64,000 bases of DNA from assembly GCF_053078305.1 (NCBI RefSeq), contig NZ_CP166879.1, one strand, 5' to 3'. Numbering within the stretch: position 1 is the stretch's first letter; each line of letters begins with the position of its first letter. Made by a program: the position numbers and the translations under genes. The notes beneath the pieces were generated by a model that made no database searches, was not told the origin of the DNA, and was given only the letters and a program-made list of their open reading frames with translations. Below are positions 41,484 through 44,399 of this stretch, one piece after another.

Positions 41484-42209
41484 ATGACGTGGACAAGAAA
41501 AACAATCAGCGTCAGCGCTGACATGCCCCCGCTGAGCTGTTCCGTCATCCCCGTCACACCGTGGACTTACGGGCTGGGACGATATGAAGAATCGGGGGTA
41601 TATTTAAGCCCTCCGAACGCCATAAACTGGCTGGCCGGGAAAATGGCCGGAAGCCGTGCATCCGGCGACGTGACCATTATCATGATTGCCGAAAACACCC
41701 ACGATCTTTTTATACAGTCAATGGCGGCACTGACCGCCGTTCTGCCCGTGCCGGTATTCACGCAGGCACAGCGCATGGCACAGGCTGCCGCCAGTCTGAG
41801 CACTGACAAAATGCAAATCCCGATCACCACCGACACCCTGCCCGCACCTGTGCATCTTTCCGTTGCCACAATGCGCAGCGCAGTCAGTGCCGCCCGTGCA
41901 GCACAGGCCAGGCAGCTGGCAGCACAACGCCCGGATGCCGCAGGGCTTCGCCGCCAGATAAGCCGCTTTATCAGCAGACGGGCTGGCGCACTTGCCGGAC
42001 TGGAAGACGGGATCAGAACACTGGCAGAACAGAAGGCGCAGGCCTGGGTATTTCAGTACCGGGGGTATCACCGCGCCGCAGCGGCGGCCATGGTGAAGGA
42101 TATCCCGGCACCGACCGCCGTACATACTGTGGCCGCACTCCTGGCGGCAGACTCATTAACCGAACTGGGGAAAATGATCCATGAGCCAGACCGCACTGCT
42201 CGCCCTTGA
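41484..42209 (+). CDS. Hypothetical tail-region protein (Ala-rich)
   Basis: 241-aa ORF between fibre assembly gene and spike-like gene. Confidence 0.3.
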   Translation: MTWTRKTISVSADMPPLSCSVIPVTPWTYGLGRYEESGVYLSPPNAINWLAGKMAGSRASGDVTIIMIAENTHDLFIQSMAALTAVLPVPVFTQAQRMAQAAASLSTDKMQIPITTDTLPAPVHLSVATMRSAVSAARAAQARQLAAQRPDAAGLRRQISRFISRRAGALAGLEDGIRTLAEQKAQAWVFQYRGYHRAAAAAMVKDIPAPTAVHTVAALLAADSLTELGKMIHEPDRTARP

Positions 42210-42723
42210 TGGTGAGGGTATTTTCATGCAGAACATGGTGATTTCGCCCTCGATGCAGTTCCAGGAAAAGGACCAGTCCGGTCAGACATCGAGCACCGCG
42301 AACGCCGAGCAGGGCATCAAGGCCAAAGAGCTTCGCGTAACCGGGATGATCACCTTTGACAATGAGCGGGCCCTTCAGCGCATTTTCCAGCTGGCCTCTG
42401 CCACCACCGGGGACGGTGCCCTGAAAGTTTACCGTATCGCAAACGCCACCGCTGCCGCCATTAACTTTCGTGAAGGGACATTTTCCGGGCAGATAGACGC
42501 ACAGCAGCAGACCGACCGCCTCGCCTGGCAGGTCAGCTTCACATTACGCGAAAGACGAAGCGTACCGGAAAAACGCCAGGCACGCGCCGCACCCGGCAGC
42601 AGCCGTAAACAGACGCCGCAGACGCCCGGCGCAAAAGGCGGGACCGTGGCCGACGAAACACCGGAGAAAATGACCTGGTTCGAAGAAAAGGTCCTCAAAC
42701 CCGTCAATGATGCGCTGGAGTAA
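42181..42723 (+). CDS. Hypothetical tail-region protein (start uncertain)
   Basis: 180-aa ORF overlapping upstream gene; alternative start MQNMVISPS. Confidence 0.3.
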   Translation: MSQTALLALDGEGIFMQNMVISPSMQFQEKDQSGQTSSTANAEQGIKAKELRVTGMITFDNERALQRIFQLASATTGDGALKVYRIANATAAAINFREGTFSGQIDAQQQTDRLAWQVSFTLRERRSVPEKRQARAAPGSSRKQTPQTPGAKGGTVADETPEKMTWFEEKVLKPVNDALE

Positions 42724-42725
42724 CC

Positions 42726-44399
42726 ATGAACCCCACTAAACGTCTGTTACTGGGTAACGACACCATTCAGCTGGTCAGCTGTTCCGTCATGCTTGAGCTG
42801 AACGCGTGCGGACGCGGATTTATCACGGCCAGAACGGAGCAGAACTACACCGGGCGCCCTGTTCGTCTCGATATCGGATACGGAAACGACCTGGTGCGCT
42901 GGTTTACCGGATACGTTGAACGCAGCCAGCCCGCTGAAAACGGCTCGGTGCGGCTTCTGATTCGTGAAATGGCGGGGATCCTTGATCACCCCTTCCCCTG
43001 TTCATTTCAGCACCCGACAATGCGCACGGTCACACAGTGGCTGAGTGAGACCAGCGGGCTGGAAATCATCCTGCCGGACAACGCGGCTTACACTGACAGA
43101 CCCGTTCCGCATTTCACGCACAGCGGCACGGGCTACGAACTGCTGGCCAGTCTGGGGCGTATTTTCTCCGTACCGGACTACATCTGGCATCCGTTACCGG
43201 ACGGCGGCATTATGGCCGCTGCCGCCGCGCAGGGGATGTTTTCCGGTCGCCCCGTCACCATCCCGCACGAGTTCAGCCAGGCATCAACGGGCGGACACAG
43301 TATGACCCTCCCGATGATTCAGACGCTGCGACCGGGTGTGGAGGTGAACGGTCAGCGCCTGACGATGGTCATGCTGGAAGATGACAACATGACCATCACG
43401 TGGACACCACGCAATAAAGCCACCGGCGCCCCCCTCCAGAAGTCCCCTTTCCGTCGCCAGGCTGAAAAGGCCTTCCCTGAACTGGCATCAGGGCTTCACC
43501 TGCCCAAACTGGCACGTGTTGAGGCGCCGACCGAAGCCGTCAGCGCGGGCAATATTGCCGACCCGTTCAGACCCCGCTACGCGGTGAATCTCCAGCTGCT
43601 TGACGAGAACGGCAACCCGGCAGCGGATACGCCCGTTTATAACGCCGTTCCCCTCCCCGTTCCTATGGCGGGCAGTGAGTCCGGCATGTTCCAGTTCCCG
43701 CCCCCCGGAACCCTGGTGGAAGTGGGATTTGTGGAAGGCCGGGCGGATAAGCCCTTCATCCGCCAGATAATGGCAGAGGGCCACAATCTGCCCGACGTGA
43801 AGCCGGGCGAGCAGTTGCAGCAACAGCGCGACGGCGTATCGCAGCGCGTGACGGTCGCCGGAGACTGGGAGCGCCAGACAGACCAGCGGATACAGGAGAC
43901 ATCACGCGAGCGCGTGGTGAGCGCAGACGAGGAGACGCGGAGCCTGACCAGCCGGGAGACCACCATACAGGCAACCGACACAACCACCGTCCTGGGCGTA
44001 TCCACGCTTCAGGCTGGCGCAGTCACCCATATCACTGAAGAGAACTACAGCATCAGCACGGGCGGGCACATGATGGTGGTTGCCGGTACCTGTGAGCGCG
44101 ACGTGGAAGGCGACACACTGGACACCGTGGGCGGCAGCCTTACCGAAAAGATTAAGGGCGTCCGTCACAGTATTGCGCAGGCGCAGAAGCTGGTTGGCGA
44201 TACGGTGAAGCTGGGAAACGAGGGCATTAATGTACTGACCATGCTGACGGACCTTGCCGATGTGGTGGAAGAGCTGGCCGATATTACGGCATCACATACC
44301 CACCCCAAAACGGGCACGTCTCCGCAGGCCGCACAGTTCAGCCAGGTCGCTCAGGAGTGCCGCCAGCTTAAAAATAAATATTCACCAATAATCGAATAA
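42726..44399 (+). CDS. Putative baseplate hub / central spike protein
   Basis: 557 aa; C-terminal region with histidine motif ITASHTHP resembling iron-binding spike tips (P2 gpV-type); last gene before non-coding right arm. Confidence 0.35.
   Translation: MNPTKRLLLGNDTIQLVSCSVMLELNACGRGFITARTEQNYTGRPVRLDIGYGNDLVRWFTGYVERSQPAENGSVRLLIREMAGILDHPFPCSFQHPTMRTVTQWLSETSGLEIILPDNAAYTDRPVPHFTHSGTGYELLASLGRIFSVPDYIWHPLPDGGIMAAAAAQGMFSGRPVTIPHEFSQASTGGHSMTLPMIQTLRPGVEVNGQRLTMVMLEDDNMTITWTPRNKATGAPLQKSPFRRQAEKAFPELASGLHLPKLARVEAPTEAVSAGNIADPFRPRYAVNLQLLDENGNPAADTPVYNAVPLPVPMAGSESGMFQFPPPGTLVEVGFVEGRADKPFIRQIMAEGHNLPDVKPGEQLQQQRDGVSQRVTVAGDWERQTDQRIQETSRERVVSADEETRSLTSRETTIQATDTTTVLGVSTLQAGAVTHITEENYSISTGGHMMVVAGTCERDVEGDTLDTVGGSLTEKIKGVRHSIAQAQKLVGDTVKLGNEGINVLTMLTDLADVVEELADITASHTHPKTGTSPQAAQFSQVAQECRQLKNKYSPIIE

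Follow-up and report, generated by a model that had tools for sequence, protein, structure and literature searches.

We have analysed three consecutive genes in a window of 64,000 nucleotides of E. coli DNA (contig NZ_CP166879.1). The open reading frames run along the + strand at positions 41484-42209, 42181-42723 and 42726-44399 and encode proteins of 241, 180 and 557 aa. An ORF check bore out these coordinates and lengths, which had been given in the initial annotation, and RefSeq annotates the same trio in E. coli prophages that are near-identical to this one. The three genes lie in an E. coli prophage that sits between dmsA and serS and belongs to the P2 family, in the HP1 subgroup of Peduoviridae. 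Their orthologues in Haemophilus phages HP1/HP2 are orf33, orf34 and orf35, from which the names used here are taken, and they close the late tail operon as its final cistrons. This prophage type was found in 11 of 5426 complete E. coli genomes. A megablast search of the 2.9-kb region against phage genomes returned no match at the DNA level, so protein-level searches were needed.

Upstream, in the same operon and on the same strand, lie genes for the tape measure (34557-36743), a DUF2590 protein (36719-37090), baseplate J (37068-38252), a P2 I-like protein (38245-38793), the tail fibre (38816-40876) and Tfa (40876-41472). The order of these genes (34557..41472) is identical to that of HP2 orf27-orf32, and the gene order of HP2 is matched exactly over the whole of orf27-orf35. 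Spacing is tight throughout the trio: the orf33-like gene starts 12 nt past the Tfa stop, the orf33-like and orf34-like genes overlap by 29 nt, and the orf35-like gene starts 3 nt past the orf34-like stop. An intrinsic-terminator-like hairpin with a T run (44414-44432, or 44414..44441 with the T run; + strand) follows 15 nt after the orf35-like stop and is predicted to end the late tail operon; its equivalent in phage K139 is the annotated terminator T39 after orf39. The three genes have a GC content of 0.57-0.63, like the remaining tail module, as against 0.46-0.51 downstream, where a low-GC cargo zone with two hok/gef loci sits past the operon terminator. No Rfam families were found in 44300-46400, and no att-site direct repeats of at least 14 nt were found between the integrase end and the region past the orf35-like gene. 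The place after Tfa had been likened to the Z/fun cargo hotspot of P2. That analogy does not carry over, as the gene order here is that of HP1, with the sheath gene (30611-31756) and the tube gene upstream of the tape measure and the terminator directly after the trio. The same trio after Tfa was also present in K139, Aeromonas P05B, ESSI2_ev040 and ACA2, as well as in three distantly related contigs from prophages or metagenomes.

The orf33-like gene (41484..42209, + strand) encodes a member of a conserved, virion-associated family that carries no functional annotation, as judged from its match to PHROG 1677 (E 1e-58) and from synteny, including the family's position between Tfa and an orf34-type gene. 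In tblastn searches, the 241-aa protein was matched by HP2 orf33 (E 4e-8) and K139 orf37 (E 3e-7), and both align with the family. Their strong scores against the orf33 family HMM are circular, since both were built into it; ACA2 gp46 matches this HMM with E 3e-14. Homologues were detected by tblastn in 40 phage records, compared with 75-76 for orf34 and orf35. A 1165-aa 'homologue' (P0221) was rejected as a marginal match in an unrelated context. Conserved Cys/His residues in the N-terminal motif, considered as the mark of an enzyme, were likewise dropped, and only L41, A46 and P208 are nearly invariant. The predicted fold (pLDDT 94) consists of a long variable helical hairpin and a compact alpha/beta core. 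Structural comparison of this model gave no convincing neighbour and none among solved baseplate proteins, PDB sequence and profile searches gave chance-level matches only, and neither Pfam nor NCBIfam holds a family for the protein, which RefSeq names 'hypothetical'. Comparison with P2 gpU, gpD and gpV using hhalign, with single sequences or small profiles, yielded nothing significant; the positive control, the HP1-type tube against the P2 tube, failed as well, so the hhalign negatives reported here weigh little.

The orf33-like protein would be present in few copies, as part of the virion or in association with the baseplate, and restricted to the HP1 subgroup. Mass spectrometry of ACA1 virions detected the orf33, gpD and gpV homologues (PMC10612066), with the orf33 homologue of this distant phage, gp46, represented by 2 spectra and 6% coverage (PMC10612066 Table S2). 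No paper on Yersinia phage vB_YenM_324 was found in the literature, and mass spectrometry of PV94 covers other proteins. We consider it unlikely that the 241-aa protein is instead an assembly factor mostly lost from the finished particle, either a chaperone or scaffold of the hub-spike trimer or a protein that joins fibre and baseplate. Such a role would suit a gene placed directly past the fibre assembly gene, a product with a very low count in ACA1 virions (2 spectra; PMC10612066), a helical hairpin and alpha/beta core without counterpart among solved baseplate proteins, and a family that evolves faster than orf34 and orf35 (40 versus 75-76 phage records). Against it, the ACA1 virions were CsCl-type purified and the counts for genuine low-copy proteins of the baseplate, gpW (1), gpJ (2) and gpV (2), were similar (PMC10612066), and one phage record annotates a homologue as 'structural protein', with the basis of the label not given.

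The orf34-like gene (42181..42723, + strand) encodes a baseplate complex protein, as RefSeq also names it. The 180-aa product is a member of the HP1_ORF34 family (PF25759; E 3.4e-54, 183.7 bits against a cut-off of 27), with the match spanning profile positions 3-175 of 180 (173/180). The same Pfam family is matched by 30/30 aligned homologues, the protein also matches PHROG 1398, and homologues occur in 76 phage records. The N-terminal ~125 aa and a C-terminal motif, WFE.KVLKPVNDALG, are conserved, with a low-complexity linker of basic character between them, and the gene lies directly upstream of the orf35-type hub-spike gene within a tail operon of HP1 type. PDB sequence and profile searches gave chance-level matches only. 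No HP1-type baseplate structure was present in the PDB copy searched, and all baseplate positions proposed here are inferred for that reason. The orf34-like protein would most likely serve as a tube initiator or adaptor of the gpU kind, placed between the hub and the tube. Comparison of a 30-sequence orf34-like profile with a 9-sequence gpU profile in hhalign gave a probability of 0.1-0.2%, on small alignments with which the positive control also failed, and tblastn with P2 gpU matched 469 phage records, with no HP1-subgroup phage among the 40 sampled rows. Published work calls the HHpred assignment of an orf34 homologue to gpU 'uncertain' and did not detect ACA1 gp47 in virions (PMC10612066). 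The orf34-like protein may be a tube initiator.

The orf35-like gene (42726..44399, + strand) encodes a fused baseplate hub and central spike of VgrG-like architecture. Its 557-aa product has a match to PHROG 2258 'baseplate protein' (E 1e-242), and tblastn detected homologues in 75 phage records. Structure prediction and comparison with known spikes and hubs, proposed in the initial annotation as a check, matched it to both. Foldseek aligned the model over its full length with VgrG-type spikes of extracellular contractile injection systems (eCIS) and type VI secretion systems (T6SS) at E 2e-14 to 1e-12, and the best structural matches were 7aef_q, 7b5h_AJ, 9jg9_G, 9qgm_8A, 6rbk_C, 6j0m_A and 4mtk_A. 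The N-terminal region, ~aa 1-270 (42726..43535, + strand), has the hub fold of the gp27 / Mu gp44 / P2 gpD type, modelled by AF2 with pLDDT ~80-90 over aa 1-230. Hub-only matches were obtained to Mu gp44 (1wru; E 1.8e-9, TM to target 0.50), E217 (8eon_E; E 1.6e-9, TM to target 0.55), MuSo2 (3cdd; E 3e-9) and the pyocin R2 hub (6u5h_A; E 1e-5), and the hub also matched 9b45_d (E 4.5e-9; 0.58). PHROG 196 'baseplate hub' matches aa 25-128 with E 2e-5. In phage ACA2, the hub and spike halves are two genes, annotated as gpD-like and as cell-puncturing device, and published work regards HP1 orf35 as gpD and gpV joined in one protein (PMC10612066 Table S1 note d). The plain spike-like view taken at first had overlooked this hub, which emerges from the Foldseek matches and the published Table S1 assignment. 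Pfam Phage_GPD gave no match to the N-terminal half. With hhalign, an 8-sequence gpD profile was aligned to the orf35-like protein over 119 colinear columns at E 0.054 and a probability of 1%; neither this alignment nor the comparison with gpV (E 0.55) showed significant similarity. The proposed relation of the N-terminal half to gpD draws on the modelled fold and published HHpred results (PMC10612066).

Downstream of the hub, the same chain carries a gp5/gpV-type OB-fold domain followed by a trimeric beta-helix. The OB-fold domain, ~aa 286-350 (43581..43775, + strand), is recognised by weak profile matches: Pfam Phage_base_V at aa 310-345 (E 0.0025, 18.6 bits, under the 23.8 cut-off), TIGR01646 VgrG at aa 313-362 (E 0.0013) and, with the orf35-like family profile against the PDB, VgrG matches spanning aa 313-428. 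Pvc8 shows a weak sequence match aligned over this domain. The triple-stranded beta-helix region, ~aa 370-500 (43833..44225, + strand), is delimited by matches of the family profile to the T4 gp5 beta-helix (aa 368-500, E 6.5e-6) and to VgrG 8gra_I (aa 317-493, E 1.9e-4). Its repeats vary in length across the family through whole-block indels in alignment columns 455-495. The AF2 monomer model of the 557-aa protein has a mean pLDDT of 68 with the beta-helix disordered; low pLDDT in a monomer model is what an intertwined trimer would be expected to give there. Fold and profile matches show that the 557-aa protein joins hub and spike: a single chain carries a trimeric hub predicted to cap the tube, an OB domain of the gp5 type, a needle formed by the beta-helix and a tip at the C-terminus.

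The predicted apex region, aa 503-557 (44232..44396, + strand), is modelled by AF2 as a heptad-repeat helix, an HxH turn and a return helix, with helices at 503-523 and 535-556 (pLDDT 71-86). The first helix has a hydrophobic a/d pattern at 504/507/511/514/518/521, residues 527-532 are P/G-rich, and the second helix is amphipathic. The motif SHTHP (residues 523-527) contains the single HxH of the protein, His524-Thr525-His526 (codons at 44295..44303, + strand). Neither H524 nor H526 varies across 32 aligned sequences of 38-100% identity, an HxH lies at most 60 residues from the C-terminus in 120/120 database homologues, and the same C-terminal HxH is present in six phage orthologues, split-gene ones included. 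In the P2 spike literature a C-terminal HxH is the signature of the Apex domain (bioRxiv 10.1101/2023.02.25.529910), and on sequence grounds the 557-aa protein carries this mark of a gpV-type Apex. The early reading of SHTHP as an apex-type motif of a central spike protein is thus upheld, the motif being real and invariant and the spike being supported by fold and profile. 'Histidine-rich', the term applied to the tip, is not apt for a protein with 14 His in 557 residues (2.5%) and one HxH. In the monomer model, which is provisional in this respect, helices flank the motif in place of a short conical domain directly continuing the beta-helix.

As in P2 gpV, whose Apex binds Fe, three copies of the HxH would form a distal six-histidine cage around a metal ion. 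Here the beta-helix would not carry the cage directly; the cage would lie where a helical hairpin turns, between an outgoing coiled coil and a returning helix. Sheath contraction would force the rigid tip across the outer membrane in front of the tube. A strict requirement for piercing is not established even in P2, because the P2 Apex and His cage are dispensable for laboratory infection (bioRxiv 10.1101/2023.02.25.529910). It could be argued that the HxH is a mere clamp for trimer register or folding, with the real distal end elsewhere, for instance in a separately encoded tip protein. HxH cages are also present in fibres and tailspikes, where such clamps have been proposed, and the P2 cage is dispensable in the laboratory (bioRxiv 10.1101/2023.02.25.529910); here, in contrast to the P2 apex, two predicted helices flank the motif and 31 residues separate it from the C-terminus. 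This reading is nevertheless quite improbable: the late structural genes of the near-identical RefSeq prophage, as shown from a start within the replication gene, include none annotated as PAAR-like or as another tip protein, PAAR is found on spikes that lack a C-terminal HxH and not on those that have it (bioRxiv 10.1101/2023.02.25.529910), the motif is invariant in an HxHP context as in gpV, and a return helix past the turn would put the cage at the distal extremity.

A distinction between structural genes and cargo had been regarded as undecidable from sequence, which is contradicted by strict synteny, tail-module GC and the lack of any defence-family match for the three proteins in PADLOC. 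A cargo role for the 241-aa and 180-aa genes (as morons, or as genes for defence or lysogenic conversion) in a post-fibre hotspot like P2 Z/fun, as their place past Tfa and a 'hypothetical' 241-aa protein without Pfam or NCBIfam family might suggest, is largely refuted and has very little probability left, given synteny held over deep divergence (down to ~12-25% identity), homologues in 76 (orf34) and 40 (orf33) phage records that all belong to the HP1 subgroup, gene boundaries that overlap or touch without an intervening promoter or terminator, GC equal to that of the tail module, no PADLOC matches, an orf34 family named baseplate complex protein by Pfam, an orf33 homologue in ACA1 virions (PMC10612066), and a true variable low-GC zone that begins only past the terminator. 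The three genes are an ordinary conserved structural module, not cargo. They are in all probability best explained as the HP1-type orf33/orf34/orf35 baseplate module, with a hub-spike fusion and the roles proposed above for orf34 and orf33, and their products would make up the central part of the contractile-tail baseplate.

The main value of these results is in annotation. All three genes had been described as uncharacterised, which holds for the 241-aa protein but not for the 180-aa (PF25759) and 557-aa (PHROG 2258) proteins; of the trio, only the 241-aa protein is a true unknown. RefSeq leaves two or all three genes 'hypothetical' in matching genomes, and public phage records name the orf34 homologue misleadingly as 'adenine glycosylase' or 'nucleoid DNA-binding protein'. 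All three can now be labelled as genes of the baseplate / central-spike module, and the real cargo zone of the prophage can be placed past the operon terminator. HP1-type phages are a natural instance of a VgrG in a phage, a single chain that unites hub and spike and brings its own HxH tip. The orf33 family is well folded and widely conserved and is explained by no solved baseplate, which makes the HP1-type baseplate a reasonable cryo-EM target. Two further readings, taken jointly, are offered tentatively, as possible but rather doubtful: that orf33 is a baseplate part with a fold new to solved systems, and that the tip is a new apex architecture. If the first is true, HP1-type tails use a hub-proximal part absent in P2, Mu, T4, pyocins and eCIS; if the second is true, the tip is a six-helix bundle with a His cage at the hairpin turns and not the beta-structured cone of gpV.

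The same trio, in the same order, with the same upstream tail genes and at the end of the late operon, is found in HP1/HP2, K139, F108, phiO18P, ESSI-2, SW3/SI7 and phi3. Among phages, the nearest relatives are the ESSI-2-like coliphages and SI7/SW3 of Salmonella, the latter with 67%/74%/48% protein identity for orf35/orf34/orf33. Among HP1-subgroup phages, beta-helix length differs between lineages.

P2 gpD and gpV share functions and folds with the orf35-like protein (tube-capping hub, OB domain, beta-helix and C-terminal HxHP), but hub and spike are separate genes in P2 and one chain here. The P2 gpU gene lies directly upstream of gpD, and the orf34-like gene keeps that place upstream of the hub gene. 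P2 gpX (LysM) has no recognisable counterpart here, and orf33 has none in P2. The apex of gpV comprises 21 residues straight after the beta-helix, with 12 residues past the motif (bioRxiv 10.1101/2023.02.25.529910), whereas the predicted tip here is helix-HxH-helix with 31 residues past the motif; the context is H197-K198-H199-P200 (HKHP) in gpV and HTHP here.

VgrG, Afp8 and Pvc8 have the same one-chain gp27-gp5 architecture, as judged by fold, yet they belong to T6SS and extracellular contractile injection systems and the orf35-like protein to a phage virion. Their spikes have a blunt end and a separate PAAR protein (bioRxiv 10.1101/2023.02.25.529910), whereas the orf35-like protein has its own HxH tip and no PAAR is annotated among the late genes of the near-identical prophage. 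The minimal baseplate of Vibrio phage XM1, gp11-gp14, consists of a 250-aa tube-continuing ring, a 188-aa accessory protein, a hub and a spike (PMC10457771); this set is of similar size and provides a working picture for the two small proteins that would lie near the hub.

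The prophage spans about 33 kb of the window and is followed on its right by the chromosomal E. coli genes serS, rarA, lolA and ftsK. The integrase lies at 13264-14271, and the late genes are of the P2 family (portal, terminase, GPO scaffold, P2-family capsid and Ogr/Delta). No direct repeats of at least 14 nt were found between the integrase end (12900-13500) and the region past the tail operon (44380-46400). Among 5426 complete E. coli genomes, only 11 carry near-identical prophages, which share 98.6-99.8% DNA identity. The tail module opens with terminator and completion proteins, followed by sheath (30611-31756; PHROG 907) and tube, lysis genes, chaperone and tape measure (34557-36743), and continues with DUF2590, baseplate J, a P2 I-like protein, fibre, the fibre assembly gene Tfa and, lastly, three genes encoding proteins of 241, 180 and 557 aa. 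This order is that of Haemophilus phages HP1/HP2 and not that of P2. Because HP2 carries orf27 to orf35 in exactly the same order, the three genes are orthologues of orf33, orf34 and orf35. By analogy with the P2 map, the initial annotation expected sheath and tube to follow this trio; in the prophage both lie upstream, so the analogy does not apply.

Between the holin and M15 endolysin genes lies a 250-aa ORF (32519-33271, + strand), the counterpart of which is labelled a DNA methyltransferase by RefSeq in a near-identical prophage. The HP2 lysis cassette has no gene at this place, and the ORF resembles a moron set within the late operon. An intact tail fibre gene (686 aa; 38816-40876) is present in the window; the prophage of strain Bongo, otherwise 99.7% identical, has instead two fragments annotated as pseudogenes (L001 17327-19393).

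The orf33-like (41484-42209; 241 aa), orf34-like (42181-42723; 180 aa) and orf35-like (42726-44399; 557 aa) genes, all on the + strand, have the places and lengths first reported for them, and RefSeq also calls all three in near-identical prophages, where the products are named, in that order, "hypothetical", "baseplate complex protein" (or "hypothetical") and "hypothetical". They form one compact operon. The first starts 12 nt past the Tfa stop with GGAGG as its Shine-Dalgarno sequence, overlaps the second by 29 nt, and the third starts 3 nt past the stop of the second; a terminator-like hairpin with a T run (44414-44441) follows 15 nt past the final stop. GC content is 0.57-0.63 across the tail module, trio included, and drops to 0.46-0.51 only past the terminator. 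The same trio ends the late operon in K139, Aeromonas phage P05B, ESSI2_ev040 and Pseudoalteromonas phage ACA2. Homologues were detected by tblastn in 75 (orf35), 76 (orf34) and 40 (orf33) phage records, and all genera named in these counts and in the listed rows are members of the HP1 subgroup. The initial annotation considered it undecidable from sequence whether the first two genes are structural or cargo. On the contrary, sequence answers the question: the trio is not cargo but the conserved set of an HP1-type tail that supplies hub, spike and accessory proteins. The observation is real but ordinary. Structural family assignments already existed for two of the three genes, and the hub-spike fusion has been noted in the literature.

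The cargo zone of the prophage is not the region after Tfa but the stretch past the terminator. Between the tail-operon terminator and serS, this low-GC stretch (0.46-0.51) holds two tandem hok/gef-type toxin loci (45102-46164). Their ORFs, of 46 aa each and beginning MPQKTIIVSILC, are at 45261-45401 and 45983-46123 (+ strand), and the loci lie in direct repeats spaced ~720-722 bp apart with 94% identity. In the related strain Bongo, three copies carry a Hok/Gef annotation. An Rfam search of the region returned no RNA family at the gathering threshold.

Pfam PF25759, "HP1 ORF34 baseplate complex protein", includes the 180-aa protein as a full-length member (E 3e-54), together with 30 of 30 aligned relatives. 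The conserved N-terminal portion of the protein, of ~125 residues, is joined by a basic low-complexity linker to a C-terminal motif that is likewise conserved. In public phage records, orf34 homologues are misnamed "adenine glycosylase", "nucleoid DNA-binding protein" or "DNA-binding protein", probably because residues 125-165 are basic and of low complexity. The gene is directly upstream of the gpD-like gene, a placement shared with gpU, the tube-initiator of P2, and the homologue in ACA phages was labelled "gpU?" by its authors (PMC10612066). Profile comparisons of the family with gpU gave no match, but lacked power, as the positive control likewise failed. Our best guess, for which we see about an even chance, is a tube-initiator or adaptor.

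The only real unknown of the trio is the 241-aa protein, which falls in PHROG 1677 (function unknown) and retrieved no family in Pfam, NCBIfam or PADLOC searches. Among 1.84 billion cluster representatives, searched exhaustively, 97 relatives were found, and even distant ones of ~25% identity are encoded between a fibre-assembly gene and an HP1_ORF34 gene. In Pseudomonas phage phi3, the orf33-like region (28681-28980 of the record) has no annotated gene. The AlphaFold model, of very high confidence (pLDDT 93.8, pTM 0.81), has an alpha/beta core with a long helical hairpin. A Foldseek search of this model against BFVD found nothing at E<=0.001, a weak negative in that even HP1-type orf33 homologues were missed; the family is either absent from BFVD or poorly modelled there. 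Purified virions of phage ACA1 yielded 2 spectra of the homologue gp46, comparable to gpW, gpJ and gpV (PMC10612066), and ACA2 gp46 matches the orf33 family HMM (E 3e-14). We therefore lean slightly towards a protein associated with the baseplate at low copy number and restricted to the HP1 subgroup, with an assembly factor as the main, rather improbable alternative.

Along its entire length the 557-aa protein matches PHROG 2258, "baseplate protein" (E 1e-242); a weak match to PHROG 196, "baseplate hub", covers residues 25-128. Pfam returned only a below-threshold Phage_base_V OB-domain (residues 310-345), and NCBIfam gave weak VgrG matches (residues 313-362). A family profile built from 32 sequences matched, among PDB sequences, the T4 gp5 beta-helix (residues 368-500; E 6.5e-6) and VgrG spikes (residues 317-493; E 2e-4). 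In the AlphaFold model the N-terminal 230 residues are good (pLDDT ~80-90), the two C-terminal helices fair and the beta-helix poor, as is to be expected when an intertwined trimer is modelled as a monomer. Foldseek against the PDB gave full-length matches (E 2e-14 to 1e-12) to one-chain hub-spike proteins of eCIS and T6SS (AlgoCIS, Anabaena CIS, Afp8, Pvc8 and several VgrGs) and N-terminal matches (E 1e-9 to 1e-5) to hub-only proteins (Mu gp44, the MuSo2 43-kDa protein and the E217, Pa193, pyocin R2 and P1 hubs). These profile and structural matches identify the protein as a fused baseplate hub and central spike, and the spike proposed in the initial annotation is thereby borne out.

The suggestion that its SHTHP motif (residues 523-527) resembles a spike apex was also correct, although the protein, in which histidines number 14 (2.5%) and HxH occurs once, is not "histidine-rich". 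Both H524 and H526 are invariant in the 32-sequence alignment, and an HxH lies no more than 60 residues from the C-terminus in every one of the 120 homologues retrieved, as well as in six orthologues from phages. A C-terminal HxH has been described as the one universally conserved spike feature, marking the Apex domain, and spikes that lack it have a separate PAAR protein (bioRxiv 10.1101/2023.02.25.529910). The structural (late) genes shown for a near-identical prophage, in a stretch that begins inside the replication gene, include none annotated as PAAR. The tip, SHTHPKTG, shares its HxHP core with HTHKHPG of P2 gpV, in which H197 and H199 are the cage histidines, whereas its predicted setting is unlike that of gpV. 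Residues 503-523 are a predicted helix with a clean hydrophobic 3-4 repeat (504, 507, 511, 514, 518, 521), residues 527-532 are Pro/Gly-rich, and residues 535-556 are a predicted amphipathic helix. From the monomer model and this periodicity we infer that a trimeric coiled coil would extend out of the beta-helix, with the HxH cage at the turn after it, and that the last helix may pack back to form a six-helix bundle.

In phi3, two separate tblastn matches together span 96% of the 557-aa query, though only the spike half (324 aa; L004 3001-4637) is annotated; the hub half is thus unannotated or frame-shifted. ACA2 has a gpD-like gene apart from the spike gene (L006 2971-4601). [quoted passage not shown]
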